Shown one piece after another: positions 6,480 through 51,670 of a stretch of DNA of 64,000 nucleotides. The DNA is taken from the NCBI GenBank assembly GCA_020718645.1, contig DYRQ01000002.1, forward strand, positions 4,781-68,780. The letters run 5' to 3'. The position numbers and the translations under genes were made by a program. This stretch comes from Verrucomicrobium spinosum. GTDB taxonomy: Bacteria; Verrucomicrobiota; Verrucomicrobiia; JADLBR01; JAIBCM01. Under the pieces are notes generated by a model. That model saw only the letters and a program-made list of their open reading frames with translations, was not told the DNA's origin and did not search any database. Position 1 is the first letter of the stretch. Every line of letters begins with the position of its first letter.

Positions 6480-7277
6480 TCAGGAGTGTTTTTCGCACCC
6501 GTCGTTGTGGTGATGCTCTTCCTCATCGTGAGAGTGGTCATGGTGTCCCGTGCATCCGCTGGCACCTGGTTCAGCTTTGGTGAGTGAGCCCGCTTTCCAT
6601 TCTTGTATCCAATTCTCCCAAGAGCCTAGGTGGTCGGCGGGAATGAGGTAGGCCTGGATTCCAGCGCGAGTCAACAGGGCGAGAGCCCGTTCGCCTAAAC
6701 CACCCGCCAGCACGATGTTGACCTCTTGGCGGGCCAGCCACGCAGGGTAGGCGCCTGGCTTGTGCTCGGGCGCGGAATGTAAGTCGTGCGAGAGCACTTG
6801 TCCCGTGCAAGACTCCACCTCGATCAAGTAGAAATGGCTGGCGCCACCGAAATGTGAACAGAAGTCGTCAGATCCCCAAGGGAGAGCGATGCGAACGGAC
6901 TGAGTCTTCTGGAGTGAGACAGAACCCAAAAGATCGCAGGCAGTAGCCACGGACTGTTCGCAAGGAACTTTGAGCTCTTTTTTTAAGATAGCACAGTGAG
7001 TTGCACCTACCTGCTCGGCAAAACGGCGTTCCAAATCTTCCCGTTGGTCTGGGGCTAGGGTGATAGCCGCGTGCAGGGCGCCGCAGCGACCATCAGGCGC
7101 TCTTCCGCTGCCGAAAGGGCGGAACGATTCGATAGGCTCTTCGGCATTCCCCTTGTGCTCTTGCCAAGCATGGAGAACGGATTGCGCACAGTTGAGCCGC
7201 TCGGGGAGTTGGCGGAATACTGATAAAGCAGTCTTTTTCATGGTTGTGGGCATATGCTCATAACTGCGTGGCGTCAA
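6480..7277 (-). CDS. Fusion protein. N-terminal C_GCAxxG_C_C-like redox domain, C-terminal NifX/NifB-type (dinitrogenase FeMo-cofactor, MTH1175-like) domain, and a His-rich C-terminal tail.
   Basis: The N-terminus (LNCAQSVLHAW...GRCGALHAAITLA) fits the C_GCAxxG_C_C family. The region SHFGGASHFYLIEVE...IVLAGGLGERALALLTRAGIQAY fits the Nitro_FeMo-Co fold. The tail GHHDHSHDEEEHHHNDGCEKHS looks metal-binding. Alternative starts are possible at 7253 or 7241. Confidence 0.6.
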   Translation of the reverse strand: MTPRSYEHMPTTMKKTALSVFRQLPERLNCAQSVLHAWQEHKGNAEEPIESFRPFGSGRAPDGRCGALHAAITLAPDQREDLERRFAEQVGATHCAILKKELKVPCEQSVATACDLLGSVSLQKTQSVRIALPWGSDDFCSHFGGASHFYLIEVESCTGQVLSHDLHSAPEHKPGAYPAWLARQEVNIVLAGGLGERALALLTRAGIQAYLIPADHLGSWENWIQEWKAGSLTKAEPGASGCTGHHDHSHDEEEHHHNDGCEKHS

Positions 7278-7322
7278 TTTTTTTTCTTTGCCCAGTCTCG
7301 TCCCCGCCTCTACGCACTAGCT

Positions 7323-7652
7323 ATGGCCAGACCACCTTGCCCACGCCGAATCAAAGGCGAGGCCCCTATAGCCTGTTTCAAACCAGTAGGAGTTCCTCTG
7401 GGCGACTTGCAGGAAATTACCCTGACTGCCGACGAATGGGAGGCGCTGAGATTGGCGGATTGCGCCGGTTGTTACCATGCGGAGGCCGCCGCGTGTATGG
7501 GGGTCTCCAGGCAAACTTTCGACCGCATTTTGCGGCGCGCCCGCGGACAGGTCGCCTGTGCTTTGGTGCACGGCCACGCTTTGCGAATCGAACGAGCGGC
7601 GGATCGCATTTCGAATTGTTCTCCCGGTGGCAGAGCCAAGCGAAATTGCTGA
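7323..7652 (+). CDS. DUF134 / UPF0251 family predicted DNA-binding protein
   Basis: The sequence MARPPCPRRIKGEAPIACFKPVGVPLGDLQEITLTADEWEALRLADCAGCYHAEAAACMGVSRQTFDRILRRARGQVACALVHGHALRIE closely matches the DUF134 consensus (PRxxKxRR..., FKP.G.PL, sigma-70 region 4-like HTH). It is divergent from the NifX-like gene with only a 45-nt spacer. Confidence 0.8.
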   Translation: MARPPCPRRIKGEAPIACFKPVGVPLGDLQEITLTADEWEALRLADCAGCYHAEAAACMGVSRQTFDRILRRARGQVACALVHGHALRIERAADRISNCSPGGRAKRNC

Positions 7653-7705: not shown

Positions 7706-8911
7706 CTAGACCGCCGTCGCTGTGTGATCCTCGAACTGCTGGCGGATCGCGAGAAATTCATCTAGGTGCTGGAGGAAGATGTCCACGATTTTCGGCTCGA
7801 AATGCGTGCCTCGTCCCTCGGTGATAATCTCCACACAGCGCTCGTGTGAAAAGGGCTCTTTGTAAGGGCGCTTCGTGCTGAGTGCATCGTAAACATCGGC
7901 CAACGCCACGATACGGCAGGACTCGGGGATGTGCTCTCCAGCGATCCGGTTCGGATAGCCTGTGCCATCCCATTTCTCGTGGTGGCCGAGCGCGACTTCG
8001 CAGCTCAGGGCAATGACAGGATCATCGTTGCCGCCCAAAATTCCAGCGCCAATGATGCAATGTTTTTCCATCGCTGCGCGTTCCATGAAATCAAGTTTAC
8101 CAGGCTTGTTGAGGATGGCATCAGGCACACCAACTTTACCGACATCGTGCATGGCCGAGGCGATGCGTAGGAGATCGGTGTTGTCCTCGTCCCAGCCGCA
8201 GCCACGGGCTAAAAGCTCGGAGTAAAGGCTGACGCGGGTGATGTGGTTAGCGGTTTCTTTGTCGCGCCACTCCGCAGCAATACCAAGGCGGCGGAGCGTG
8301 TCCAAATGCGCGGCGCGGAGGCTCGCGGTGAGGCGGGCATTCTCGATGGCCACCGCGGCTTGGCTGGCGACAGCGCGGGCGATTTCTATGTCCTCGGAAA
8401 AGAAGGGAGTCGGCGACTCCCCGCCGCCGGCATTGATGAGCTGGAGCACACCGACCACGCTGCCCGAGAGATTTTTCATCGGGATCGCCAGCATAGAAAC
8501 CGTGGTGTAATCGTTCTCTAAATCAAAGCGGTTATTGTGGGTGAACGGCGAACCGGCAGGGAGGGAACGCACATCGTCGAGCACGATAGTTTCCCCCCTG
8601 ACCGCGCAGGCGCCAGCGACTGATTCCGTGGTGATCTGGACCGTGAAACTGGTGAAAAGCCCTTTGGCTTTTTCGCCTCCGAGTCGTTGCTCCAAGCTCA
8701 GACAACGGGCCGCCGAGGATTCGAGGTGCCCGGGACGGGTCAGGAAAAGCGTGCCTGCATCAGCGCGGGTGACCCTCAGGAGGGCGTTGAGGATTTTCCC
8801 CATCAGCTTGTCGAGATCCTGCTCTGCCGAGAGGTGGAGGCAGATTTCCATCAAGCTTTGCAGCGGGAAACGGGGCTGGTCAGGCTGTGGTGTTGCTGGG
8901 GTTGTTGTCAT
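7706..8911 (-). CDS. GAF-domain HD-GYP phosphodiesterase (c-di-GMP)
   Basis: An N-terminal GAF domain is followed by a C-terminal HD-GYP domain, with the motifs HDVGKVGVPDAILNKPGKL and HHEKWDGTGYP. Confidence 0.85.
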   Translation of the reverse strand: MTTTPATPQPDQPRFPLQSLMEICLHLSAEQDLDKLMGKILNALLRVTRADAGTLFLTRPGHLESSAARCLSLEQRLGGEKAKGLFTSFTVQITTESVAGACAVRGETIVLDDVRSLPAGSPFTHNNRFDLENDYTTVSMLAIPMKNLSGSVVGVLQLINAGGGESPTPFFSEDIEIARAVASQAAVAIENARLTASLRAAHLDTLRRLGIAAEWRDKETANHITRVSLYSELLARGCGWDEDNTDLLRIASAMHDVGKVGVPDAILNKPGKLDFMERAAMEKHCIIGAGILGGNDDPVIALSCEVALGHHEKWDGTGYPNRIAGEHIPESCRIVALADVYDALSTKRPYKEPFSHERCVEIITEGRGTHFEPKIVDIFLQHLDEFLAIRQQFEDHTATAV

Positions 8912-8935
8912 AAGGGTGGTTCTTCGTGAGGGCGG

Positions 8936-10615
8936 TCAGTGTTCTAGTAGTGGTTGTATATCAGTGGCTCGGAGGATGCCCGAGCCGAGGAGCACGGCGC
9001 AGCGTTGGATGGCGTTGCGCAGTTCGCGGACATTGCCGGGCCAAGGGTGTGACTGGAGCAAGCGCAGGGCGGGCTCATCGAAATCCATAGCCCCAAGACC
9101 GTTTTCCATGCAGAAGGCTTCGAGGAAATGTCTGGCCAACGAGGGGATGTCCTCCGCGTGTTCTCTCAGGGGTGGTATATCTAGGGTCAGGACATTCAGG
9201 CGGTGAAAGAGATCTTCGCGGAAAACTTTTTCACGGATCATCTGTTTGAGATCGCGGTGAGTAGCAGCGATGACGCGGACATCCACCCGCTCCGCACCCG
9301 AGCCGCCGAGGGGTTCGATCTCGCGGTTTTCCAGCACGCGCAACAGTTTGGGTTGCACCTGCACGGGCAGTTCACCGATTTCGTCGAGGAAGATGGTGCC
9401 CCCATCGGCTTGGGCAAACTTGCCGCGCCGCGATTCCTTGGCATCGGTGAAGGCACCTTTTTTGTGGCCGAAAAGTTCGCTCTCGATGAGGGAGTCGGGA
9501 ATGGCGCCGCAGTTGACACGCACAAAAGGTTTACTCGCCCGCGCACTGGCCGCATGCAGGCAGTGGGCCACGACCTCTTTCCCGCTGCCAGTCTCGCCGC
9601 GCACGAGCACGGTGACATTGGAGGCAGCCGCTTTGGCGACGAGCTGGCGGAGGCGTTCCATCGCGGGGCTTCCACCGAGTAACATGGGGAGAGTCCCGGC
9701 GCGAGCTTGCAAGGCGCGGTTCTGTTCGCGCAACACGGCATGGTCGTGGGCGCGGTTGCTGCCTTTGGCCCAAAGCTGGGCGATGGCCTGGAGCAGCACG
9801 CGGTCTTCGCGGCAGAAATCCGACCACTCCGCAGGGCGGATGATGACCACAAACGGCGGTGGCTCTTGGGCACTGGTGCCAGTTTTCACAGGAGCAGCGA
9901 GGTAGTTGAAACGCCCGACTTTTTGTTGGTGTCGGGCTATCTCGGCACCGGGCACGATAGCGGCTTCCTGCAAGGATTGAAACCGGGTCGCGAGGAAGTC
10001 AGCCAGTTTGACCGTGGGCTGATTGGGCTCGGCAGAGGAGCGGCAGAGGAGGCGGAGGTCCGGCGAATAAAGTTGAGCTTCGGCGGCACCGTAAGTCTCG
10101 CGCAACAGATCGGCCATGCGCTGGGCCAGCACCGTATCGTCGTCGCATTCAGCCAGCCAATAAGCGGCATGATACATCGCCGAGAGGTGGCGTTCCTCCC
10201 GCTGCTCAGGCAACCGGATCCCACCCCGCACCGTCTGTTCGAAATCCACCGGATTTGCGGCGGGATCGGGCAGTGTTGAGGGCTGTTTTGGAACAGGTAT
10301 TCCCGCACCGCAGACGAGCACGAAAACAAAGATACCCACCTCGACCTCATCCCCCTCGTGCAGGGTGGCGTGATGCCGTGGCACGCCGTTGACTTTAATT
10401 CCATTGCGGCTGTTGACATCGCAGACGGTGACCGTGTTGCCGGCGCACTGGACGCGGGCGTGGGTGCGAGAGACGGAAGCGTCGGGCAGGGTGATGTGGC
10501 AGGAGTCGTCACGCCCGATCATGGTGTCCCCCTCGGATATTGGAATCAGGGAACCTCTCTGGCCGTTTTTTACAAAGGCCAAGCTCCAATGTTTCGGTGT
10601 GGCGCGGGGGGGCAT
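8936..10615 (-). CDS. Sigma-54-dependent activator (AAA+). It has an N-terminal FHA domain and a GAF-like middle domain, and apparently no C-terminal HTH.
   Basis: The FHA domain is IGRDDSCHITLPDASVSRTHARV...NSRNGIKVNG. The sigma54 AAA+ domain shows GETGSGKE and an ESELFGHKKGAFTDA-type GAFTGA motif. The ORF stops about 22 aa after the AAA domain ends (NVRELRNAIQRCAVLLGSGILRATDIQPLLEH*). Confidence 0.85.
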   Translation of the reverse strand: MPPRATPKHWSLAFVKNGQRGSLIPISEGDTMIGRDDSCHITLPDASVSRTHARVQCAGNTVTVCDVNSRNGIKVNGVPRHHATLHEGDEVEVGIFVFVLVCGAGIPVPKQPSTLPDPAANPVDFEQTVRGGIRLPEQREERHLSAMYHAAYWLAECDDDTVLAQRMADLLRETYGAAEAQLYSPDLRLLCRSSAEPNQPTVKLADFLATRFQSLQEAAIVPGAEIARHQQKVGRFNYLAAPVKTGTSAQEPPPFVVIIRPAEWSDFCREDRVLLQAIAQLWAKGSNRAHDHAVLREQNRALQARAGTLPMLLGGSPAMERLRQLVAKAAASNVTVLVRGETGSGKEVVAHCLHAASARASKPFVRVNCGAIPDSLIESELFGHKKGAFTDAKESRRGKFAQADGGTIFLDEIGELPVQVQPKLLRVLENREIEPLGGSGAERVDVRVIAATHRDLKQMIREKVFREDLFHRLNVLTLDIPPLREHAEDIPSLARHFLEAFCMENGLGAMDFDEPALRLLQSHPWPGNVRELRNAIQRCAVLLGSGILRATDIQPLLEH

Positions 10616-10620
10616 CGGCG

Positions 10621-11400
10621 TTATTTTTCCCGAGGGTAGAGGATTTTATTCGCCGGAACACCACATTTCTGCGCGGACTCTAGCGGGGAGTCCGTGATGA
10701 CAGAACCGACCTTGTTCCACGCGCAGAGGTGGTGGGCGGTTGTGGTCCCGATTTTTGTGGCATCGATCAGGAAGATAGATTCCTCGGCGCGGGACATAAC
10801 AGCGCGTTGAAAGGAGACCACCTCGGGGCGAGTGTTCCACAATCCCTTGCGGGTTGCTCCCTCAGCACTGAGAAAAGCACGGGTAAATGACCAGAGTTTG
10901 GCAGCGCGGCAGGCGCTCTCACCCAAGAGGAGAGACTGGGAGGGGAGGAGTTCCCCACCGATCAAGCAGATGCGGATACCGTCCAGCCCCGAGAGAGTTT
11001 CAGCCACTGGCAGATTATTGGTCACGACGGTGAGCGATTGGAAAAGGGAATCGCGCACGGCTTCGGCCAAGGCATGGACGGTGGTGCCGCTGTCGAAGTA
11101 GCAGATGGAGCCATCGGGCACGAGTGCGAGAGAGGTGCGGGCGATCTCACGCTTGGCCGCCGCCGCGTGGCGGAGGCGTTCGCGAAAAGGAGGGAAGCGA
11201 GAGTCGTAATCGGTGAGAGCACCGCCGAAAGTGCGTCGAATGTGGCGGTGTTTCTCGAGGTGGGCGAGGTCGCGGCGGGCAGTTGCTTCCGAAACTCCGA
11301 GCCTGCGGCAGATGTCACGGACAGGCAGGTAACGGTGGCTCGAGAGCAAGGCAGAGAGCTTGGCGCGCCGTTCCTCCACGAGATGGAGAGGAGTTTTCAT
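10621..11400 (-). CDS. DeoR/GlpR-family transcriptional regulator
   Basis: From the internal ATG the protein begins MKTPLHLVEERRAKLSALLSSHRYLPVRDICRRLGVSEATARRDLAHLE (a DeoR HTH), followed by a sugar-phosphate-binding C-terminal domain. The 80-codon upstream extension in the ORF track was rejected. Confidence 0.8.
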   Translation of the reverse strand: MKTPLHLVEERRAKLSALLSSHRYLPVRDICRRLGVSEATARRDLAHLEKHRHIRRTFGGALTDYDSRFPPFRERLRHAAAAKREIARTSLALVPDGSICYFDSGTTVHALAEAVRDSLFQSLTVVTNNLPVAETLSGLDGIRICLIGGELLPSQSLLLGESACRAAKLWSFTRAFLSAEGATRKGLWNTRPEVVSFQRAVMSRAEESIFLIDATKIGTTTAHHLCAWNKVGSVITDSPLESAQKCGVPANKILYPREK

Positions 11401-25056: not shown

Positions 25057-26067
25057 TCAGTCTTGGAACAGGTGCGGGGCTATGTAGTAGGGTCTGCCGG
25101 GTTTGATGGCGCCGAGAATCTCTGGCACGATTTCAAGAGTCAAAGTGCGGTGACGGCTTTCCATGCTGAGGAGTTGGAAAATGTTGAAAAAGCTGAAGGG
25201 GATAGTGTAGCGGATGACTCTCGCCTCTTTCACCCCCGCCAGTTTTTTGGCCTCGGCAACGGCGTCTTCGAAGTATCCGAGCTTATCCACCAACCCGGCT
25301 GCCAGCGCGTTTTTACCGCTGATCGGACGGCCATCGGCCACCCCCGATTTGAGTTCGTCAATGTTGAGCTGCCGCTCGATGGCGACTATGCCAACAAACT
25401 TTTCGTAGGTCTCCATGATCATGTCTTGGACATATTTTTTTTCCTCTTCAGTCGGTGCCCGGTCACCCGAGAGGATGTCTTTGAATTTACCAGATTTGAA
25501 AGTGTGGAAGCGGACACCGATTTTACCCGAGAGCCCTTCATAGTCCATGCTCTGCATGATGACGCCAATACTGCCGGTAAGGGTGAGTTCGTTCGCCACT
25601 ATTTTCGAGGCACCCATAGCTGCGTAGTAACCGCCGGAGGCTGCGACGGACATCATGTGAACCACGACAGGTTTTTGATAATCGTCGCGGGTTTTCTTGA
25701 TTTCGTGGTAGAGCACATCGCTGGCGTTGACCTCGCCTCCGGGTGAATCAATGTTGAGGATAATGGCTTTGACATCCTCATCTTCGCGGGCTCGTTCGAG
25801 TTGCTCGATGACGGTGTCCACCATGGACTCTGCCGCATAGCTTTCAATAGCGTAGCTGATGACACCGACGAGATCTATGACAGCGATTTTGTCGTGGGAT
25901 TCGCCATCAATCATGGTCTCTTCCCCGAGCATCGTCGCCTTGGGCTTATCGGTGGGGGTTTTCCATTGGAGACTCAGATAGAAGACGATGTTGACGATGA
26001 GGCTGACCAGCAGAAAGAGGACCAGCAGGATTGAAAGGCATCCTGACTGTGTTTGAGATCGGTTCAT
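25057..26067 (-). CDS. sppA: Signal peptide peptidase SppA (S49, 36K type)
   Basis: An N-terminal TM segment is followed by the S49 core SVAASGGYYAAMGASKIVANELTLTGSIGV. Confidence 0.85.
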   Translation of the reverse strand: MNRSQTQSGCLSILLVLFLLVSLIVNIVFYLSLQWKTPTDKPKATMLGEETMIDGESHDKIAVIDLVGVISYAIESYAAESMVDTVIEQLERAREDEDVKAIILNIDSPGGEVNASDVLYHEIKKTRDDYQKPVVVHMMSVAASGGYYAAMGASKIVANELTLTGSIGVIMQSMDYEGLSGKIGVRFHTFKSGKFKDILSGDRAPTEEEKKYVQDMIMETYEKFVGIVAIERQLNIDELKSGVADGRPISGKNALAAGLVDKLGYFEDAVAEAKKLAGVKEARVIRYTIPFSFFNIFQLLSMESRHRTLTLEIVPEILGAIKPGRPYYIAPHLFQD

Positions 26068-26180
26068 AGATTGCTTAACCTTGCCGCCTACAGCGCCGCC
26101 CGCAAGTGGAAAAGCTGTTTCCTAGGAACTCTACTCCTATCGTTCAAGCAGGATGATACCGGGAACAGAAATGTGTGCAA

Positions 26181-26200
26181 AACCCAGATTAACCCAGATT
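26181..26200. repeat. Perfect tandem duplication of the 10-mer AACCCAGATT
   Basis: Directly seen: aacccagatt aacccagatt at 26181-26200, in the intergenic region ahead of the AT-rich island gene. Confidence 0.9.
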
Positions 26201-26265
26201 TTGCAATAGCAAGCGATAGGTGCAGATGCGAGGCGTAAGCTCGCCTGTGCTTGTGGGTGATGCTG

Positions 26266-26281
26266 TTGTAATGTATTACAA
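26266..26281. promoter_or_regulatory. Perfect palindrome TTGTAAT-GT-ATTACAA (candidate operator) about 115 nt upstream of the island ORF
   Basis: The 7-bp arms are exact reverse complements with a 2-nt spacer. A small hairpin AGGCG-TAAGCT-CGCCT lies just upstream (26231-26246). Confidence 0.3.
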
Positions 26282-26395
26282 AACACTAGAAGCATGGTAG
26301 CTGACTAGTCTCCCAGCCCAACTGAAGTAACAAAATAGTGTCACTTCTAGCACCTCTTGATTGGCTGTGTATTTTCTGATCTAAATATGCAATAA

Positions 26396-28630
26396 ATGAA
26401 ACATCTCCAGAAAATCGTAGCGATTATTTCTGTGGTTGTGTTTCAAATCATGGATTCTACAGTGCTGGCAATGGATGTAGATGTAGATGGCATGAGCGAA
26501 GTTTGGCAGAGACTACATACCATTGCTTCGGGCGATCAAAGCTCAGATCTCGACGGGGATGGTCAGACTAACGGAATAGAGGCTGCTGCCGGCACAAACC
26601 CAAGAAACCCGAACGATGTCTTCCGTGTGGAAAGTTTGGATTTTGCAGAGGACTTGTCGGAGGTTACCCTCGTATGGAGAAGTTTTCCGGCTCTCTTTTA
26701 CTCCGTCCAAATGTCTGAAAACCTTCAGGATTGGTCTTTGGTAGGGAGTGTTCTCGGACATTCTGGAGCCAGTCAAACTAGCTTCTCTCTGACTTTGTCG
26801 TCACCGTCTTTACCCAAAGCATTTTTTCGTGTTCTGGCAGATGCAAACTCTAGCCCTGATACGGACGGAGACGGGCTTCAAGATTGGGAAGAGCATCTTC
26901 TACAAACGAGCATCTACATCACAGACACAGACGGCGATGGAATACCTGATGGCGCAGAATTTTCCTATGGACTCAATCCCCTATTAGCAGAGGACGCAGC
27001 GCTGGATGCGGATAGCGACGGACAGTCGAACGGACAAGAATACCAGAACGGAACCAACCCTCAATCCTCCTTGTCCAAAATGCCATCTCCTGCAGTGCGA
27101 TATGCCGTGATAGATTGCGGAGAGGGAGTGGCCATTGATCTCAACGATTCTGGACATGTGTTAGTGTGGAGTGGCTCACCGCGTCAATACCTCTTTGCAG
27201 AGGGAGATCGGGTTGGGTTGAGTAACGAATATCCCGCCTGTGTAGGAAACGATGGCACCGTGGCTGGCCCTAGTCAATTCGACGGCAACGGAGGGGGCAG
27301 AAAAGGTTTTCTGGAAAATTCTGGTTCTTCATTTTACGGTTTCTACAATGATTGGATAAAAGATGAACCTGGTCCGTGTTGGATCAATGACATCAGTTCG
27401 CTAGGCATACAAGTGGGCTCAATAATGGATGATGGTTCGCACCCTTATCCCTGTTATTACTTGCAAGGCGGGCAGGCCATATTGCTCAATACACCTACAG
27501 TGCAAAGCGGGAATCAGTCTTTCAGAGGGGGAGGCTATGCTTCCGCCATACACGAGGGCGGCCCGAATGGGCAGATTGTGGTGGGCATGCTGTTTGATTT
27601 TAGTATAGGAGACTTCGTGCCTGCAATGTGGTTGAATGGGAGTTACACGCTGATGCAAAATAGTTATGAGTCAGCGTATTTATCTGGAGTCAATATGTTC
27701 AAACAAGCAGTGGGTAGCGGAGGGTCACAGGCACTGCTCTGGGACAACGGACAAAAGCCCCTAGGGCATGGCAAAGCATGGGGAATCAATAGTCGTCAAA
27801 AGGATGGGCAATCCCGTCCGTTAATAGTAGGGGGAGATGGTGGCCATCATGAAAAAGATGGTCTTGGCAGCGATGACAAGGGGGTGTTCTGGGAGCAGCC
27901 GGTTCTCGAAGATGGCTCGCTGGATAGTCACTTTGAAGCGTATTATTTCGACGATGTCATAGTGGATAAAAGAACTTGGAATATCAACACGGCTGTAGCC
28001 GTCAACGAAGCATGCCAAGTTGCAGCCTCTGCCACAAACTTACAAACTGGTAAAACACATGCCGTCCTCCTCCTGCCGATCGAGGTAACAGACTTCAAGG
28101 CCGAGGATTATGGGACGGGAATTGAAACATCAGGGGTCTATCGCAAGGTTAACCTACAACCCGGAGATGTAGTTGTTTGGGGGAGATCGCTCGTTTCGGC
28201 AATCGTTAAAGTTCCCAATGGTTTTTCGAATACAATCATAGAACCTAGAATTGTCCAAGATGTTACACCGAATAGAACGCGCAATTTCACAACTCCTACT
28301 TCCCAAGGCCATACTAAAGAAATCATGCAATACCAAAACCAAAAGGTTTTGGATAATGTGCTTGATGAAAGTTGGGTAGAGCTGATTACAATTAGGCGAC
28401 TAGCACAGGATGTATTAATCGAGTCAAGGGATCAGCCTGAGCAGGGTGGAGGACCAGAGCACAGTGGAATAATTATAGCTGATAAGTTTGACGCTTATCT
28501 CCAATGCAATGTTTTTGGTCAAGGGTGGAGCACCTATGGAAAAGTTGAGTGGAGATTTAACGCTAATCTAAGCCGAAGCGGAAGCTCTTGGACTGGCAGT
28601 GCTGCGATTCGGGTGGAAGCGGGCGTTTAA
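26396..28630 (+). CDS. Large secreted protein with thrombospondin-type-3-like Ca-binding repeats (AT-rich island gene)
   Basis: It has a signal peptide (MKHLQKIVAIISVVVFQIMDSTVLA). Repeated D-x-D-x-D-G motifs are present (DLDGDGQTNG, DTDGDGLQDWEE, DTDGDGIPDGAE, DADSDGQSNGQEYQNGTNP). A long Gly/Trp/Asn-rich C-terminal region has no recognisable family. GC content is clearly lower than in the flanks. Confidence 0.6.
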   Translation: MKHLQKIVAIISVVVFQIMDSTVLAMDVDVDGMSEVWQRLHTIASGDQSSDLDGDGQTNGIEAAAGTNPRNPNDVFRVESLDFAEDLSEVTLVWRSFPALFYSVQMSENLQDWSLVGSVLGHSGASQTSFSLTLSSPSLPKAFFRVLADANSSPDTDGDGLQDWEEHLLQTSIYITDTDGDGIPDGAEFSYGLNPLLAEDAALDADSDGQSNGQEYQNGTNPQSSLSKMPSPAVRYAVIDCGEGVAIDLNDSGHVLVWSGSPRQYLFAEGDRVGLSNEYPACVGNDGTVAGPSQFDGNGGGRKGFLENSGSSFYGFYNDWIKDEPGPCWINDISSLGIQVGSIMDDGSHPYPCYYLQGGQAILLNTPTVQSGNQSFRGGGYASAIHEGGPNGQIVVGMLFDFSIGDFVPAMWLNGSYTLMQNSYESAYLSGVNMFKQAVGSGGSQALLWDNGQKPLGHGKAWGINSRQKDGQSRPLIVGGDGGHHEKDGLGSDDKGVFWEQPVLEDGSLDSHFEAYYFDDVIVDKRTWNINTAVAVNEACQVAASATNLQTGKTHAVLLLPIEVTDFKAEDYGTGIETSGVYRKVNLQPGDVVVWGRSLVSAIVKVPNGFSNTIIEPRIVQDVTPNRTRNFTTPTSQGHTKEIMQYQNQKVLDNVLDESWVELITIRRLAQDVLIESRDQPEQGGGPEHSGIIIADKFDAYLQCNVFGQGWSTYGKVEWRFNANLSRSGSSWTGSAAIRVEAGV

Positions 28631-28685
28631 CCGCTGAGGAGCCAGTGATGCAGCCAAACATTCATCCCGTTCAGTTTGTCCCTCA

Positions 28686-29381
28686 ATGAAATCGCGGCAT
28701 ATAATATTTGTCCTATTCATTGCGACGCTCATGCAGAGAAGCATGGCCGCCCAAAATGCTAGTGACATTGGTTTCAATATGAAACCAACCCCGTTTGATG
28801 CCTATGCGGCGGCAACCCAAGATACTTTACCTCGGTTGGAGCCATATTTTCGTGCCTATAAAGAAGCTGAAAAACAGGGCGACAAAGTTCAGAAGGAAGC
28901 CATGCTTCACCAGATCGTTCTTCGCAATACGCTAGAAAACTGGAGATGGCAATTTTACCAATACGGTATACAGAACGAACAGAAACTTTCTGATCGCGAG
29001 CGGGCGGTATGGAAAATGATCAACACGATGTTTGCAGGACGGACTGCACCTCCGAACCCTGAAAACATGCTCCGAATTCCTCCCGAACAAATACGAGAAT
29101 CTATAATTCGAGAAAAAGAAGAGTTCAATAAGACGTTGACGGCTTTTGATAGCGGTAATTTCGGGAACAAGCCACTGCCTACGACTATAACACCGACCGC
29201 AGGTGTGCAAACAACACCCGCTCCATCAGTGGCGACGCCGGTTCAACAGGCCCAAACGGCCATGTCGCCAACGGTGGCGCAAACCCAATCCACGCTGGGC
29301 TTCCCCTTCGTGCCGGTGACAATACTCGCAGCGGTGATCGTGGGAATCGTCCTTTACCTCCTTCGCCGTAAATCGAAGTGA
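28686..29381 (+). CDS. Hypothetical secreted protein with C-terminal TM anchor and basic tail (island gene)
   Basis: It has a signal peptide (MKSRHIIFVLFIATLMQRSMA) and a Thr/Pro/Gln-rich linker. The C-terminus is GFPFVPVTILAAVIVGIVLYLLRRKSK, a hydrophobic helix plus RRK reminiscent of a sorting-signal architecture, but it lacks a PEP motif. Confidence 0.5.
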   Translation: MKSRHIIFVLFIATLMQRSMAAQNASDIGFNMKPTPFDAYAAATQDTLPRLEPYFRAYKEAEKQGDKVQKEAMLHQIVLRNTLENWRWQFYQYGIQNEQKLSDRERAVWKMINTMFAGRTAPPNPENMLRIPPEQIRESIIREKEEFNKTLTAFDSGNFGNKPLPTTITPTAGVQTTPAPSVATPVQQAQTAMSPTVAQTQSTLGFPFVPVTILAAVIVGIVLYLLRRKSK

Positions 29382-29524
29382 AATTTGCAAGCAACGCTGG
29401 TGCGTTTGCCGCGCATAGCGACGAACGCCAGCCCTTGGTCAACCGCCGATGAACCGCTCCAAGGAGGAAGTAGGCGAAGCCTGTTTCAACCACCCCCGAC
29501 GCAGAGTCCGGTATAATCAGGGTC

Positions 29525-30829
29525 TTACTCGCCGTAAAAACCAGCGAGATCCCAGACTTTGCGTCCAGATACAAAAGTGGCCACGGCACGCCCGCGCAGG
29601 GTCTGCCCGTGGAATGGGGTGTTGCGACTCTTACTAGCAGATTGATGTTTGTCCACCGTCCAAGGTGTCTCGGTATCCAAGACAGTGATGTCTGCCTCAG
29701 CGCCTTCGGCCAAAGTGCCTTTGGGGATTTGCAGGAGTTTGGCGGGGTTCATCGTGAGCGCCCGCACGATGTCCATGAGCGGGATGCCATGGCGGTGGTG
29801 GAGATGCTCGAGGAAAAGACCCGCCTCTGTTTCAAGGCCGAGTATGCCGAAGGGTGCTTCCTGGAACTCTACTTCTTTTTCAAAATCGCAGTGCGGCGCG
29901 TGGTCGCTGGCTAATATGTCAATCACCCCTTCACGAAAAGCCTCCACGAGTGCATCGGCATCTGCCTGGGTGCGCAGGGGCGGGTTCATCTTGAAATTCG
30001 TGTCATAACCCTCGAGGCCGGCATCGGTGAGAGCAATGTGGTGGGGGCAGATTTCGCCGCTGATCGGGACGCCGCGGCTGCGGGCTTCGCGGAGGATGCG
30101 GGCACCTCCAGCAGTGGTGACATGCTGGCAGTGGACACGGTGGCGAGTGAGGTCGGCCAGCATGGCGTTGCGTGAGATCATGATTTCCTCAGCGATGGCT
30201 GGCCAGCCATGCAGACCGAGGACGGTGCTCCAGTAGCCTTCATTCATCACGCCATCGGCGGTGAGCGATTCGTCTTGGCAATGGTCGAGGATGGGCAATC
30301 CGACCATGTGGGCATGTTCGAAAGCGCGGCGCATGAGTTCGGCGCTCTGGATGCAACGACCATCGTCACTGAGCGCCACGACACCCGCTTTTTTCAGCGA
30401 GGCAAACGGGGCGAGAACTTCACCTTTTTGACCTTGGGAAAGGCAACCGCAGACCAAGACATGAACGCAGGCTTTTTCTTGGGCCCGCTGCCGGATCCAT
30501 GCCACGGTGCTGGCTGAGTCGGTGACTGGGATGGTGTTGGGCATCGCCAAGATCGTAGTGAAACCGCCAGCGGCGGCAGCGCGGGAGCCAGTTTCTATCG
30601 TTTCCTTGTCCGGGCGCCCAGGTTCGCGCAGGTGGACATGGAGATCAATCAGGCCAGGGCAGACAACCAGACCCGTGGCATCAAACTCCTCCACACCCGA
30701 AAGCCCGCGCAGGGCATTGGGGGAGACGAGGACGCCATCGAGGGCTGCGATGTCGCGGAGGGTATCGGTGCCGGAGGCCGGGTCGAGAACGCGGCCGTTT
30801 TTGATGAGAAGTGGGTGGCTCATGGTCAA
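29525..30829 (-). CDS. pyrC: Dihydroorotase
   Basis: The sequence contains LIKNGRVLDP...GLIDLHVHLREPG, the metal-binding signature of the amidohydrolase family. It lies in a pyrR-pyrB-pyrC operon. Confidence 0.9.
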   Translation of the reverse strand: MTMSHPLLIKNGRVLDPASGTDTLRDIAALDGVLVSPNALRGLSGVEEFDATGLVVCPGLIDLHVHLREPGRPDKETIETGSRAAAAGGFTTILAMPNTIPVTDSASTVAWIRQRAQEKACVHVLVCGCLSQGQKGEVLAPFASLKKAGVVALSDDGRCIQSAELMRRAFEHAHMVGLPILDHCQDESLTADGVMNEGYWSTVLGLHGWPAIAEEIMISRNAMLADLTRHRVHCQHVTTAGGARILREARSRGVPISGEICPHHIALTDAGLEGYDTNFKMNPPLRTQADADALVEAFREGVIDILASDHAPHCDFEKEVEFQEAPFGILGLETEAGLFLEHLHHRHGIPLMDIVRALTMNPAKLLQIPKGTLAEGAEADITVLDTETPWTVDKHQSASKSRNTPFHGQTLRGRAVATFVSGRKVWDLAGFYGE

Positions 30830-39038: not shown

Positions 39039-40406
39039 TTACCTCGTTGTGTGCTGGTGCGCTGCTGCCTGCGCGGTGATTTTTTTGTAGCGTGCCACGG
39101 CGTTGGCCATCCACGCATTCGCAGTGCGTCCGGCCCGCAGGCGATCTTTGCGCCAGTAGGCGGCACACTCGAGCGCCTCTGGCTCGGTGATCACCGGGCG
39201 GGTCAACTCGGCCAAAAGCGCCGTCCGCTCTGCCTCTGGGGCGCGGTTGGCAGCCAGCCAGGCCGTGCGTAGGTGATGGTGGACATCCACGATCGTCTGG
39301 CCCATGAGATCGTTGACCACGCTCCACCGTTTTGAGCCCAGCGCGTTATCGTAGTGGAAGCCTTGTTTGGCCGTAAAAGGGTTCAGGGGCACGAGGAGGT
39401 CGCCCATCTCGCTGCTGTAAAGAGACGGGATCACTCCCATGCGAGAGATGCCGTATTTCTTCGGTCCACCAGCAGAACCCACAGGGCGCATCCAGAGTTT
39501 TTGGCCGTCCTCGGACATGACGAAATCCATGAACCGCTGAGCGGTTTCGAGATTGGGTGCGCCTTTGAGGATAGCGATGCCGTCAGGGTTGATGACCGAC
39601 ACGCCTTCGGGGATGAAGAACCGGACATTTTCTTTGCCGAGATACCCTTGTTGCGTGAGACCGTTCAGATCCAGTGCCACGGCGTAGGCGGCATCCCCGC
39701 AGCTCACCTCTTTGGTGGGGGCAGAGCTGGATTGCAAGAACGAGCGCACATTGCCACTGCTGGCATAAATGACCTGCCAACCTTTCTCCCAACCGTAGGC
39801 TTGCAGGATGATCTCGTAGATCATGTGAACGCTGCCGCTTTTGCGGGGGTCGCTGCTGCTGACCCAGTTGCAGAGGCGCGGGTTGCCGAGATCTTCCCAT
39901 GTGGCTACATCGGGCAGGGAGAGAGTTTTCTTCACCCTCGTATTTTCCAAGATTCCAAAAGAAGAGAGAGCCGCACCGTAGAACGCATGATCTTTGTCGG
40001 ACAGTTCGATGCCGAAGACTGTGGCGGGCACTTGGGCTGCAATCGCAGCAGGGAGGGGGTAGGGGAGCAGTTGTCCTTTGCGTTTCTGGTTTTCAAACGG
40101 GTCCATGCCGCCACCAAAAAAAATGTCTATTCCCACGGTAGCGGGATTGGCTTTGAAACCGGCATCGAGAGCCTTTTCGATTTGTGAGGTGCCACCGAGA
40201 TCGCGCCAGCGCACGCGGACATCGGCCCCGTATTTCGCTTGGTGATAAGCGCGGAACGATTCCTCAAACTCCCACTGGATGCCTTCCCAGTGCGGGGAGA
40301 CGATCACCAATTCGTTGTCTGCGCGTAACTGTGCTGTGACAAAGCAGAAGGTGGAGAGGAGAAGGAGAAAAACCCATCCTGATTGGCGGAGAGATGCCAT
40401 TGCCAT
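39039..40406 (-). CDS. ABC transporter substrate-binding protein (family 1, Fe3+-type)
   Basis: It has a signal peptide (MAMASLRQSGWVFLLLLSTFCFVTA) and is the first gene of the binding protein-ATPase-permease operon. Confidence 0.8.
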   Translation of the reverse strand: MAMASLRQSGWVFLLLLSTFCFVTAQLRADNELVIVSPHWEGIQWEFEESFRAYHQAKYGADVRVRWRDLGGTSQIEKALDAGFKANPATVGIDIFFGGGMDPFENQKRKGQLLPYPLPAAIAAQVPATVFGIELSDKDHAFYGAALSSFGILENTRVKKTLSLPDVATWEDLGNPRLCNWVSSSDPRKSGSVHMIYEIILQAYGWEKGWQVIYASSGNVRSFLQSSSAPTKEVSCGDAAYAVALDLNGLTQQGYLGKENVRFFIPEGVSVINPDGIAILKGAPNLETAQRFMDFVMSEDGQKLWMRPVGSAGGPKKYGISRMGVIPSLYSSEMGDLLVPLNPFTAKQGFHYDNALGSKRWSVVNDLMGQTIVDVHHHLRTAWLAANRAPEAERTALLAELTRPVITEPEALECAAYWRKDRLRAGRTANAWMANAVARYKKITAQAAAHQHTTR

Positions 40407-40536
40407 TGTTGCTAGCCTTCGAGGCGGCAGTTGTAAAAACAATTATTATGACAAGTTGTTGACGGTGGTGATGTGGCCTTGGCATGCAAATAACCAGCAT
40501 CGGTCTTGCCACTTGTGAGCGGGTCTGGCAGAGCCA

Positions 40537-46146: not shown

Positions 46147-47163
46147 CTAGTGGATTTTTGCAGCCACGATGTGACCGGAGCCCGAACTGGCGATCAGGAT
46201 GCCTGGAGCGATCCAAGTCAAGGCAGAGACAGGGCCCTCGACGGCACCGTCTGCCAAGACCTGATCATGTTTCTCGGGCTGCCACACGGCAAGTCCTCCG
46301 GCACGGTCTCCTGTGGCGAGGAAAGGGGATTTTGGCTCAAACAGCACCTGCTCGACTAACTCTTCGTGCCACTCGAGCATGGCGGGTCGTGTGCCTTCTG
46401 GTCCTGCTCCGGAGCAATCCCATACTACGGGAGTCGTTCCGCCGTTCGTGGCGAGCCAGCGTCCGGTGTGGTCCCAACTGACCGAAGTGACCTTGGCCTC
46501 GTAGCCGCTCATGCGAAGAGGATCAGTGGGTTTTTTCGTGTTGCAGATATGGATGCATTTATCATGGTGCCCGCAGGCGATCCACGGGGATGCTGAGCTA
46601 ACCGACATACAGGCCATGGGGTTCTTAAACTCAAAATGGCGCACCAAGCTGCCCGTGCAGGCCTTCCAGAGAAGCACCCCTTCGTAACCGCCCGTATAAA
46701 ATTCTTGGCCCCCATCTTTCCATTCCAGAGACAGAACATGGCAGGGTCGCTCGGCGAGGACTCTGGCGCATTTTCCATCGGTGTCGTAAAGAGAGATTTT
46801 CTTGCCTGAGGCTAGCGCCAGCAAAGAGTCATCGGGTTGCGAGGATGGAGCCCAAGCCAAGTGATCAGTCCAGCCAGGCATTTCGCGTTCGAGAAGGCAC
46901 GCGCCGGTCGCTGGGTTCCAAAATTTTAAGGTTTTATCTTGTCCGCCAGTGGCGAGGACACTCCCATCAGCTCGCCAGGACGCGCTCGTAGTGCCCAAAC
47001 CGTGGCAGGGCAACTCATGTAACACGCGGCCGGTGTCAGAGCAGAGGATGGAGTTGGAGCCATCCACCGTGACAATGGCGAGGTGTGTCCCGGTGGGGGA
47101 TGGGACGATGCGGGACACGGGCGCATCGAGGCGCAGTTGCCAGAGTTCTTTCCAAGCTGCCAT
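46147..47163 (-). CDS. WD40-repeat protein
   Basis: Multiple WD repeats (GQDKTLKFWN, etc.) in 338 aa. Confidence 0.7.
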   Translation of the reverse strand: MAAWKELWQLRLDAPVSRIVPSPTGTHLAIVTVDGSNSILCSDTGRVLHELPCHGLGTTSASWRADGSVLATGGQDKTLKFWNPATGACLLEREMPGWTDHLAWAPSSQPDDSLLALASGKKISLYDTDGKCARVLAERPCHVLSLEWKDGGQEFYTGGYEGVLLWKACTGSLVRHFEFKNPMACMSVSSASPWIACGHHDKCIHICNTKKPTDPLRMSGYEAKVTSVSWDHTGRWLATNGGTTPVVWDCSGAGPEGTRPAMLEWHEELVEQVLFEPKSPFLATGDRAGGLAVWQPEKHDQVLADGAVEGPVSALTWIAPGILIASSGSGHIVAAKIH

Positions 47164-50905: not shown

Positions 50906-51670
50906 ATGCACCACGAAACCATCGAGCCAGGCCAAGTGATTTTCATGGAAGGTCAATCTGGCCGTTCCGCCTACCGCGTGCTCAGCGGTAAAATTCAAAT
51001 TTACACCACCCGCGACAGCAAGCGCGTGGTCTTGGCCGAGATTGATCCCGGCGACATTTTTGGAGAGATGGCTATTTTGCAAGACAGACCGCGCTCGGCG
51101 AGTGCTGTGGCGTTGGAGCGCTCTGAGGTCGAGGTGCTTTCAGATTATGATTTCAACGAAATGATCATCTCCCAGCCCGCGCGGCTGCTGCCTTACTTGG
51201 CCACATTTTTCGAGCGGCTCCGGCATGCCAATGATCTGCTGAAACGCCACGGGATTTCAACAGGAACGGTGCTCGATATGCCAGATCCAGGACGGGTTCC
51301 CACAGTGAAGGTTTTTGTCGAAAGCGGCATACCGGGACTTCCCCTCGAGCCAGCGGTGCAGGTGCCGAAATTTCCTTTCCGCATCGGCCGTGCTTTGGAG
51401 TCTGGAGAAAGTGCCACGCTCTTTCCGAATGACCTGGTGGTTCACGATCAGCCTCCTTACAAAGCCTCCCGCAGCCAGTGTTCCCTCAACCGCCTCGGGC
51501 CACAAATCAGCGTGCGCGACCGTGGTAGCGAGCGGGGCACGATAGTGAATGGCGAATTGATCGGGGACAAAGCTCCCAGTGAAACTTCCAAACCCCTGGT
51601 CATGGGGCGCAACGAAATCCGGCTCGGCGGTATTGATAGCCCCCATCTGCTGGTGGTCGTTCTGAGTTAA
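50906..51670 (+). CDS. Cyclic nucleotide-binding domain / FHA domain fusion protein
   Basis: The N-terminal cNMP-binding domain has GDIFGEMAILQDRPRSASAVA. The C-terminal FHA domain has FRIGRALESGESATL...DRGSERGTIVNGELI. Confidence 0.75.
   Translation: MHHETIEPGQVIFMEGQSGRSAYRVLSGKIQIYTTRDSKRVVLAEIDPGDIFGEMAILQDRPRSASAVALERSEVEVLSDYDFNEMIISQPARLLPYLATFFERLRHANDLLKRHGISTGTVLDMPDPGRVPTVKVFVESGIPGLPLEPAVQVPKFPFRIGRALESGESATLFPNDLVVHDQPPYKASRSQCSLNRLGPQISVRDRGSERGTIVNGELIGDKAPSETSKPLVMGRNEIRLGGIDSPHLLVVVLS

Follow-up and report, generated by a model that had tools for sequence, protein, structure and literature searches.

A predicted FHA-GAF-AAA+ sigma-54 activator that ends at the AAA+ lid, from a family that appears to be conserved across the Verrucomicrobiota

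The window, by which we mean the whole stretch of 64,000 nucleotides that was analyzed, contains an open reading frame at positions 8936-10615 on the minus strand, which the gene call confirmed and which encodes a protein of 559 amino acids that ends at a TGA stop codon (8936-8938). The domains are arranged in the order FHA, disordered linker, divergent GAF-fold domain and complete sigma-54 AAA+ module. The start of the 559-residue protein is backed by the alignment of homologs and agrees with a second gene call (P0121); the NCBI record holds a call of 528 residues from M32, by which the FHA strands beta1 and beta2 are cut away. The gene is flanked by two co-directional genes, of which the upstream gene for a DeoR-family regulator has its stop codon 5 nt ahead of the start of the activator gene, which makes co-transcription likely. 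The downstream gene codes for a GAF-HD-GYP protein (Pfam HD_5, E 4e-26, with the motifs HDVGK, residue 255, and HHEKWDGTGYP, residue 310), a probable c-di-GMP phosphodiesterase, and all three genes are probably co-transcribed. The features are as follows, all on the minus strand.

7706-8911, minus strand: downstream, co-directional gene for a GAF and HD-GYP protein (Pfam GAF and HD_5; ATG start)
8912-8935, minus strand: spacer of 24 nt from the activator stop codon to the HD-GYP start
8936-10615, minus strand: complete open reading frame of the FHA-GAF-AAA+ sigma-54 activator (559 aa; stop codon included)
8939-9166, minus strand: AAA+ lid subdomain, residues 484-559 (Pfam AAA_lid_14 at 484-557, E 4e-20)
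9182-9679, minus strand: sigma-54 interaction AAA+ core, residues 313-478 (Pfam Sigma54_activat, E 1e-70)
9380-9394, minus strand: Walker B motif IFLDE of the AAA+ core
9440-9457, minus strand: L1 sigma-54 contact loop GAFTDA, residues 387-392 (from the sequence)
9575-9598, minus strand: Walker A motif GETGSGKE of the AAA+ core
9701-10201, minus strand: divergent GAF-fold domain (residues 139-268) and long linker helix (residues 269-305) (model and Foldseek)
10202-10306, minus strand: disordered FHA-GAF linker, residues 104-138 (low pLDDT; contains T128)
10307-10591, minus strand: FHA domain, residues 9-103 (Pfam core 32-94; Pfam and AF2 beta-sandwich)
10621-11400, minus strand: upstream, co-directional gene for a DeoR-family regulator (Pfam HTH_DeoR and DeoRC)

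The N-terminal domain had been annotated initially as an FHA domain for phosphothreonine recognition, and this assignment was borne out by a Pfam match to residues 32-94 (E 8e-17) and by an AF2 model in which a beta-sandwich was predicted at a pLDDT of about 90 or more. The Gly-Arg, Ser-x-x-His and Asn-Gly hallmarks of FHA domains are present on this sandwich. Among the phosphothreonine-binding residues, all 39 sequences compared have G34, R35, S49 and H52, N71 is kept in 37 of the 39 and the N71/G72 pair is nearly invariant. The linker that follows, in which residues 116-129 were modeled by AF2 with a pLDDT below 50, contains a threonine, T128 (codon 10232-10234, minus strand), that is found in all 33 aligned family members amid variable neighboring positions, but not in the HTH-bearing outgroup. 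This residue is a candidate phospho-acceptor. Position pT+3 relative to T128 varies and departs from the usual preference of FHA domains, and an interaction between T128 and the FHA domain is therefore speculative.

The middle region had been described as GAF-like, which holds for the fold but not for the sequence profile, as none of the Pfam models GAF, GAF_2 and GAF_3 matched this region at E <= 0.01. The model of the domain (pLDDT 90, pTM 0.85) had the GAF domain of A. aeolicus Nlh1 (4g3k, E 2e-7) as its best Foldseek match and also matched the GAF domains of the sigma-54 activators NifA (8jrc), Nlh2 (4g3v) and 3k2n, and GAF domains dominated the matches, with TM scores of 0.6-0.7. The Pfam GAF domains of the outgroup align onto residues 158-287 of the window protein, and the middle region shares 14-20% identity with the GAF domains that Pfam does recognize in relatives. 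A GAF fold with a long helix just upstream of the AAA+ core is also found in NifA, NorR and Nlh1/Nlh2, which differ from the window protein in that they bind enhancers via an HTH domain and lack an FHA domain. Repression by the GAF domain of NorR works through masking of the GAFTGA loop, and the G266D variant escapes from this repression (PMC2941729). The GAF domain of the window protein probably operates without a masking mode of the NorR type.

The AAA+ module had been called complete, and the Pfam match (E 1e-70) and the intact catalytic residues agree with this. The AAA+ core is 45-49% identical to those of FleQ, FlrC, NtrC1, ZraR and NifA, with Foldseek target TM scores of about 0.9, and core and lid together superimposed on FleQ, FlrC, NtrC1 and ZraR with an rmsd of 1.5-2.0 A in Foldseek; the best sequence match of the AAA+ domain was NifA (phmmer E 2.5e-76). 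The residues K346, D411, E412, R466, R472 and R530 are invariant across the family, as are the Walker A and Walker B motifs, the arginine fingers, sensor II and ESELFGH. The L1 contact loop, which was initially taken to be of the GAFTGA type, is present and preceded by ESELFGH, but it reads GAFTDA, with F389 and T390 kept and the second glycine of GAFTGA replaced by aspartate. In the family, the loop is GAFTDA in 26 of 33 members, GAFSGA in four and GAFTGA in one.

The substitution in the loop bears on whether the protein is an activator at all. Sigma-54 activation may have been lost and the AAA+ module repurposed, either into an anti-activator, through poisoning of other rings or titration of sigma-54, or into a remodeler of some other phospho-protein. 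Reviews state that most GAFTGA mutants are inactive, no interaction of Dickeya VfmH, a natural GAFTDA protein, with sigma-54 was detected in a pull-down, and the window lacks a convincing sigma-54 promoter. Against this stands NorR G266D, which has the very loop GAFTDA and is competent for sigma-54 contact and open complex formation in vitro and in vivo, with a lowered ATPase activity (PMC2941729). The GAFSGA and GAFTGA loops of five members occur in the same architecture, ESELFGH, the arginine fingers and sensor II are invariant, and the surroundings of the orthologs show an enrichment of about 30-fold in perfect sigma-54 promoters. We consider a repurposed AAA+ protein to be quite improbable, and the GAFTDA loop to be compatible, by analogy with NorR, with sigma-54 activation.

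The protein had been described as ending about 22 residues beyond the AAA+ domain. These residues are instead the final helix of the lid, since the Pfam lid match extends to residue 557 and AF2 placed lid helices at 529-543 and 550-558, so that the protein stops exactly where the AAA+ module stops. The claimed absence of a Fis-type HTH was confirmed by alignment with relatives. No Pfam match to HTH_8 was found in the 559-residue protein, and the segment after the motif RELRN comprises 25 residues in the window protein and 23-37 residues, with no HTH, in 33 of 33 aligned family members, as compared to 90-99 residues where relatives bear an HTH. Relatives of the FHA-GAF-AAA+ type that do have an HTH are about 65 residues longer than the HTH-less family. 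About 90 clusters of homologs (41-53% identity, 540-590 aa) share the same end point, and the complete full-profile matches among the 50% representatives were all 541-587 aa long; these lengths are the usable result of the exhaustive profile search, the ranking of which was swamped by multi-FHA proteins.

The proteins P0095-P0101 have the architecture FHA-GAF-AAA+-HTH_8, with the GAF domain at the same position, and are 32-37% identical to the window protein over about 95% of its length. At their C-terminus is a Fis-type HTH_8, and in most of them the loop is a canonical GAFTGA, whereas the window protein has neither. As judged from this comparison, the HTH has been lost from the window family, its GAF domain is too divergent for Pfam and it has gained T128 in the linker. 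FHA-domain enhancer-binding proteins are reportedly also present in Myxococcus xanthus. These carry an HTH, and like P0095-P0101 and the window protein they have the FHA domain at the N-terminus of a sigma-54 activator.

The existence of relatives that share the N-terminal architecture but bear an HTH (P0095-P0101, P0119) would fit a pseudogene of an FHA-GAF-AAA+-HTH activator, from which the HTH is missing through a frameshift, an assembly error or truncation in the recent past. A frameshift-hidden HTH was looked for near the stop codon. The DNA downstream of the activator stop is wholly taken up by the HD-GYP open reading frame, both alternative frames 3' of the stop are crowded with stop codons and have no coding potential for an HTH, and the HTH tails of relatives, used as a profile against all six frames of the 64-kb window, gave no match. 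Three weak tblastn matches at 8614-8697 were rejected as a hidden HTH since their frame is closed by stop codons. The roughly 90 homolog clusters are independent, come from many assemblies and stop at the same position, a protein identical to the window protein has been recovered from other sources, and every catalytic residue is intact. The comparative data thus already refute an artefact or a pseudogene, to which we give next to no credence, and the sequences indicate that the lack of a DNA-binding domain is genuine. The statement that such activators are rare was fair, as activators without a signal domain, a DNA-binding domain or both made up about 4% in a census from 2011 (PMC3162934).

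From the labels of the homologs, the previously undescribed family of FHA-GAF-AAA+ proteins without a DNA-binding domain appears to be conserved across the Verrucomicrobiota. The labels of three homologous MAGs (Bacteroidetes, Bifidobacterium and Methylomirabilota) look like binning or labeling errors.

We compared the gene neighborhoods of orthologs that are 44-53% identical to the window protein in 18 genome loci and 3 further loci, 21 in total. Genes for Hanks Ser/Thr kinases adjoin the ortholog in 12 of the 18 and 2 of the 3 loci (14 of 21), and genes for PP2C phosphatases, FHA-caspase and FHA-trypsin proteins and further FHA proteins are also located nearby. This gene context supports the initial proposal that the FHA domain implies control by Ser/Thr kinases, although the window itself is without a kinase gene. 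A search with PADLOC for a known anti-phage defense system returned matches merely to generic AAA+, kinase and caspase proteins.

Perfect sigma-54 promoter sites (TGGCAC-N5-TTGC) were found 20 times in the 258 kb of orthologous loci, as compared to 0.63 +/- 0.83 in shuffled sequences that preserved the mononucleotide content only. The sites are located 10-110 nt upstream of genes for kinases, FHA-proteases, DZR-SPFH proteins and small secreted proteins, and in one locus (L011) a perfect site is located upstream of the activator gene itself. In 13 of the 18 loci, a site with at least 9 of 10 positions is directed away from the activator gene at a distance of 46-221 bp from its start. The three loci that were outside the discovery of this pattern contain 5 perfect sites, as compared to 0.11 expected from shuffles of the same mononucleotide kind, and all 5 are intergenic. 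This co-localization suggests a link between the promoters and the activator. Other activators in the genomes of the orthologs could serve the same -24/-12 promoters.

The copy in the window is an exception, as it lies outside such a kinase and promoter island in a cluster of the DeoR, activator and HD-GYP genes. Searches for a kinase or PP2C gene in the window by tblastn were negative, and Pfam and gene-call surveys of positions 1-53 kb of the window recovered no kinase, PP2C or rpoN gene. Three scans found no perfect -24/-12 sites in the 64 kb, where counts were at or below chance, and the only well-placed promoter candidate (40511-40496, minus strand; 8 of 11 positions) is weak. Both the input and the output of the window protein are consequently extrapolated from orthologs with 44-53% identity. 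The window gene is intact, but its position outside an island says nothing of its local role, which makes the window itself of lesser value.

The distance of 24 nt to the HD-GYP gene (8912-8935) was as initially described, but the adjacency is kept in none of the 21 other loci. A tblastn search with 11 neighbors from the window found none of them adjacent to the ortholog at the 18 loci, and the three further loci agree, which rejects a conserved partnership with the HD-GYP or DeoR genes. In this genome, the activator might still be tied to c-di-GMP through the GAF-HD-GYP protein, either by sensing the nucleotide directly, as FleQ does, or by driving expression of the phosphodiesterase. The HD-GYP gene begins closely behind the activator gene on the same strand, and FleQ is among the nearest solved AAA+ domains. 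However, the HD-GYP gene is not preceded by a -24/-12 element, the residues KEVVARN after Walker A in FleQ, which we take to be its c-di-GMP contacts, correspond to KEVVAHC here and vary in the family, and the adjacency is peculiar to the window. A c-di-GMP site of the FleQ type is not conserved in the window protein, and a tie to c-di-GMP seems very unlikely.

Among the closest known systems are the group 5 enhancer-binding proteins H. pylori FlgR and Chlamydia CtcC, of which the latter comes from the same PVC superphylum as the window protein. In both, as in the window protein, the complete sigma-54 AAA+ module stops at the lid and is followed by no HTH, and both presumably work on the holoenzyme from solution. 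Their input is a receiver domain that is phosphorylated on aspartate by a histidine kinase, whereas the window protein has an FHA domain and a GAF fold, and no Pfam match to Response_reg. The window family further differs from FlgR and CtcC in the implied upstream Hanks kinases and PP2C phosphatases and in the GAFTDA loop.

On balance, we think it reasonably probable that the protein is a functional activator of sigma-54 RNA polymerase that is independent of enhancers and under phosphothreonine control; activation from solution is inferred because there is no DNA-binding domain. In such a mechanism, Hanks-type kinases and PP2C phosphatases would determine the threonine phosphorylation of a partner protein or that of the activator, with T128 as the candidate site. 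The FHA domain would read the phosphothreonine and would act with the GAF domain and long linker helix to govern the assembly or the activity of the AAA+ ring. The ring would contact closed complexes of the sigma-54 holoenzyme from solution through the L1 loop and open promoters by ATP hydrolysis, as in FlgR and CtcC, and the choice of targets would be set by the -24/-12 promoters of the genome rather than by enhancer sites.

Activators of sigma-54 are usually pictured as enhancer-bound and controlled by histidine kinases or small ligands, and a review from 2020 distinguishes five groups, none of which has an FHA input. The family would unite eukaryote-like Ser/Thr phospho-signaling and enhancer independence in a phylum in which the control of transcription has scarcely been studied. 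The predicted regulon is unusually clean, and since perfect promoters are located directly upstream of the neighboring genes for kinases, FHA-proteases and small secreted proteins, the circuit is directly testable. The family would also provide a natural test of how activators without a DNA-binding domain assemble and attain specificity, and of GAFTDA as a working L1 loop.

DNA targeting could alternatively be provided in trans, either in mixed rings with an HTH-bearing activator or by an FHA tether to a phosphorylated DNA-binding protein, in which case activation would still depend on enhancers. FHA domains are docking modules between proteins, and there is a precedent in Rhodobacter sphaeroides FleT, an activator that, like the window protein, has no DNA-binding domain. 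FleT works together with FleQ, with which it builds mixed rings, and it has no sensory domain, whereas the window protein has two N-terminal domains for sensing or docking. The DeoR regulator, encoded 5 nt upstream and packed tightly against the activator gene, is the candidate partner in the window. However, DeoR was not found in 17 of the 18 loci, with the sole match about 2 kb away in L008, no recurring HTH-bearing activator was identified in the 21 orthologous loci, and FlgR and CtcC function without such a partner. In L024, a conventional REC-AAA+-HTH activator is located near another FHA activator without a DNA-binding domain, which would suit mixed rings. Targeting in trans is, in our view, unlikely.

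A more elaborate form of the enhancer-independent mechanism, which we put forward tentatively and regard as rather doubtful, is that docking of phosphothreonine to the FHA domain replaces enhancer DNA as the scaffold of the ring. A neighboring Hanks kinase would phosphorylate T128, the FHA domain of the next protomer would bind it, and such head-to-tail contacts would build the hexamer in solution. The ring would then activate a sigma-54 regulon to which both the FHA-caspase and FHA-trypsin effectors and the kinase genes themselves belong, and the activation of the kinase genes would result in positive feedback. If so, the island would represent a kinase-triggered module for envelope stress or conflict that decides cell fate via sigma-54.

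The gene call placed the FHA-GAF-AAA+ sigma-54 activator (EBP) in the following ORF:

8936-10615, minus strand: EBP ORF, 559 aa

In line with the initial annotation, which had described an ORF with FHA and sigma-54 AAA+ domains here, Pfam matched FHA (residues 32-94), Sigma54_activat (313-478) and AAA_lid_14 (484-557) in the 559-aa protein, with no HTH_8 among the matches. The NCBIfam models NifA, NorR and NtrC matched the central AAA+ part only, all below the family cut-off. The public NCBI gene call has 528 aa and starts at M32 (cf. window positions 10520-10615, minus strand), which would cost the protein its first two FHA strands and leave a truncated FHA domain. Because homologue alignments begin at residue 3-10 and a second gene call of the same protein (P0121) has 559 aa, the start at 10615 is correct. 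After the TGA stop codon (8936-8938), at the 24 nt originally noted, comes the ATG of a GAF and HD_5 (HD-GYP) protein with the motifs HDVGK and HHEKWDGTGYP. The two ORFs share a reading frame, with TGA and eight codons (8911-8938, minus strand) between the last EBP codon and the HD-GYP ATG, and one stop-codon read-through would join them into a single protein. No such fusion was found among the homologues.

The C-terminus of EBP falls within its own AAA+ lid. A degenerate HTH in the final 22 residues was rejected, because the Pfam lid model extends to residue 557 and residues 529-543 and 550-558 are helical in a confident AlphaFold2 model (mean pLDDT 89). A frameshift hiding an HTH was likewise rejected: past the stop, translation in either other frame runs into numerous stop codons and translation in frame yields the HD-GYP protein, and a profile of the relatives' HTH tails gave no match in a six-frame translation of the whole window. 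About 90 homologue clusters (41-53% identity, roughly 550 aa) share FHA, AAA+ and lid without PF02954, and the tail after RELRN measures 23-37 residues in 33/33 aligned family members, as compared to 90-99 residues in six FHA-GAF-AAA+-HTH_8 relatives. In an exhaustive profile search, all complete proteins matching the whole FHA+GAF profile were 541-587 aa long. Since homologue clusters, tail lengths and full-profile match lengths agree, the absence of a DNA-binding domain, as first proposed, is settled as real on sequence grounds, and the explanation that the missing HTH is an assembly or truncation artefact, last in weight of four alternatives, is effectively excluded.

In the family alignment, the FHA phosphothreonine-binding residues G34, R35, S49 and H52 are invariant. 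The linker between FHA and GAF is predicted to be disordered at residues 104-138 (pLDDT below 50 at 116-129) and includes a threonine, T128, which is invariant in 33/33 family members, flanked by variable positions, and missing from the HTH-bearing outgroup. T128 is a candidate phosphothreonine site, and the protein carrying the phosphothreonine may be EBP itself or a partner. No Pfam match was obtained for the middle region of EBP; Pfam GAF domains of the outgroup proteins align to residues 158-287. Modelled separately as residues 132-308 (pLDDT 90, pTM 0.85), this region returned GAF domains in a fold search, with sigma-54 activator GAFs ranking first (leading matches: Nlh1 GAF, E 2e-7; NifA; Nlh2; 3k2n). 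Between the GAF-fold domain and the AAA+ core runs a connecting helix, about 37 residues long (269-305). The core superposes on FleQ, FlrC, NtrC1 and ZraR with a TM of about 0.9 (relative to target) at 45-49% identity, and the AAA+ catalytic residues are all conserved.

The L1 loop, the sigma-54 contact loop at residues 387-392, is present as annotated, but it reads GAFTDA and not GAFTGA. Among 33 family members, GAFTDA occurs in 26, GAFSGA in four, and GAYTDA, GAFTGA and KSYTGA in one each. When the same change is made in NorR (G266D), sigma-54 contact and open-complex formation persist, ATPase activity falls and the GAF domain no longer represses (PMC2941729). Dickeya VfmH is, like EBP, a natural GAFTDA protein; in a pull-down, no interaction of VfmH with sigma-54 was detected. 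Loss of sigma-54 function in EBP ranks second in weight among the four alternatives.

Scanning one genome per species for this family recovered EBP orthologues at 18 loci, labelled essentially all as Verrucomicrobiota (Opitutaceae/Lacunisphaera, Limisphaerales, Terrimicrobiaceae/Chthoniobacterales, Methylacidiphilales and Verrucomicrobiales). The window copy sits in a tight co-directional run (PfkB, GmhB, KdsB, LigA, LysM, a 179-aa protein, DeoR, EBP, HD-GYP; gaps of 5-24 nt from LigA onward). The window from 1 to 53 kb otherwise holds housekeeping and transport genes, with no kinase, PP2C or rpoN found there. The neighbours in the window are adjacent to an orthologue in 0/18 loci. Coupling of EBP to c-di-GMP is third in weight among the alternatives. 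The window copy is an intact yet displaced family member.

Membrane-anchored Hanks kinases, one to six, with Sel1, PEGA/PG-binding or FGE-sulfatase sensor domains, stand beside the orthologue in 12/18 loci, and the loci also hold PP2C, extra FHA proteins, FHA-trypsin, a DZR-SPFH protein and a small secreted protein. Three further relatives' loci, fetched separately, carry the same island plus FHA-caspase genes. A small protein family of 148-193 aa without a Pfam match is divergent from the EBP gene in 7-8 loci and has a perfect sigma-54 promoter; its N-terminus is signal-peptide-like in at least L002 (7880-8389), and no homologue was found in the window. Gene starts in the orthologous loci, all on the minus strand:

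L005 9872, minus strand: small divergent protein
L012 1793, minus strand: small divergent protein
L014 9751, minus strand: small divergent protein
L015 3995, minus strand: small divergent protein
L016 9752, minus strand: small divergent protein
L017 9752, minus strand: small divergent protein
L018 7372, minus strand: small divergent protein

Perfect TGGCAC-N5-TTGC sites numbered 20 in 258 kb of orthologous loci, as compared to 0.63 +/- 0.83 in shuffles preserving mononucleotide content, and sites matching at least 9/10 positions numbered 43 versus 13.3. The genes that follow these sites at a distance of 10-110 nt are those for the small secreted protein (7-8 loci), kinases (5 loci), a 280-aa family (3 loci), FHA-trypsin, DZR-SPFH and, in L011, EBP itself. 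A site matching at least 9/10 positions and pointing away from the EBP gene, within 46-221 bp of its start, occurs in 13/18 loci. Three loci not used in pattern discovery contained 5 perfect sites versus 0.11 expected, all five intergenic and just upstream of genes. Sigma-54 promoters have also been predicted in Opitutia (PMC12316311). The genes around the orthologues look like a putative sigma-54-driven kinase/FHA/protease island, whose promoters may depend on the EBP orthologue. The element TGGCACG-N4-TTTGCC is near-identical across L002-L023, immediately ahead of genes for Ser/Thr kinases, FHA-trypsin, the FHA-caspase operon, DZR-SPFH and small secreted proteins, for example:

L016 14942, minus strand: TGGCACG-N4-TTTGCC
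L017 16796, minus strand: TGGCACG-N4-TTTGCC
L012 1817, minus strand: TGGCACG-N4-TTTGCC
L021 7885, plus strand: TGGCACG-N4-TTTGCC
L023 1724, plus strand: TGGCACG-N4-TTTGCC

No perfect -24/-12 site was found in the window, where near-matches are no commoner than chance predicts. With 8/11 positions matched, the only well-placed -24/-12-like element, TGGCAAGACCGATGCT (40496-40511, minus strand), is not above chance; it stands 54 nt upstream of a solute-binding protein gene in an ABC transporter operon (39039-40442).

On the best-supported reading, EBP activates sigma-54 independently of enhancers and under the control of phosphothreonine signalling, and its FHA and GAF domains would gate the AAA+ ring. 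FlgR, CtcC and FleT are precedents for activators that, like EBP, have no DNA-binding domain. Heaviest of the four alternatives is that DNA targeting is supplied in trans. FHA-bearing sigma-54 activators and those without a DNA-binding domain are both already known. The combination of features in the EBP family was not found in the literature searched and does not appear in any of the five groups of a 2020 review. In the protein, this combination comprises FHA with a divergent GAF and no HTH, a conserved GAFTDA loop and an invariant linker threonine; in its setting, it comprises a phylum-wide distribution and an island made up of kinase genes and sigma-54 promoters. Interest centres on the family and its predicted regulon. 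A second architecture without an HTH, two FHA domains with AAA+ and lid, was identified (P0102; L024 6001-7659, plus strand), with a conventional REC-AAA+-HTH_8 activator about 3 kb away, and the theme is therefore broader than the EBP family.

Another FHA protein encoded in the window (50906-51670, plus strand) has a cyclic-nucleotide-binding domain followed by an FHA domain at the C-terminus (Pfam E 4e-23 and 6e-6). GC content is 0.49-0.51 at 26000-30000, as compared to about 0.57, and also drops at 62-64 kb. The former region encodes a 744-aa protein (26396-28630) with only a faint TSP3_bac match and a 212-aa protein without family, and may be acquired DNA because of its low GC and these proteins. 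A C_GCAxxG_C_C and Nitro_FeMo-Co fusion gene (6480-7277, minus strand) is convergent with the gene for a DUF134 HTH protein (7254-7652, plus strand), the ORF ends overlapping. A 338-aa WD40 beta-propeller protein (46147-47163, minus strand) adjoins an AI-2E family transporter.
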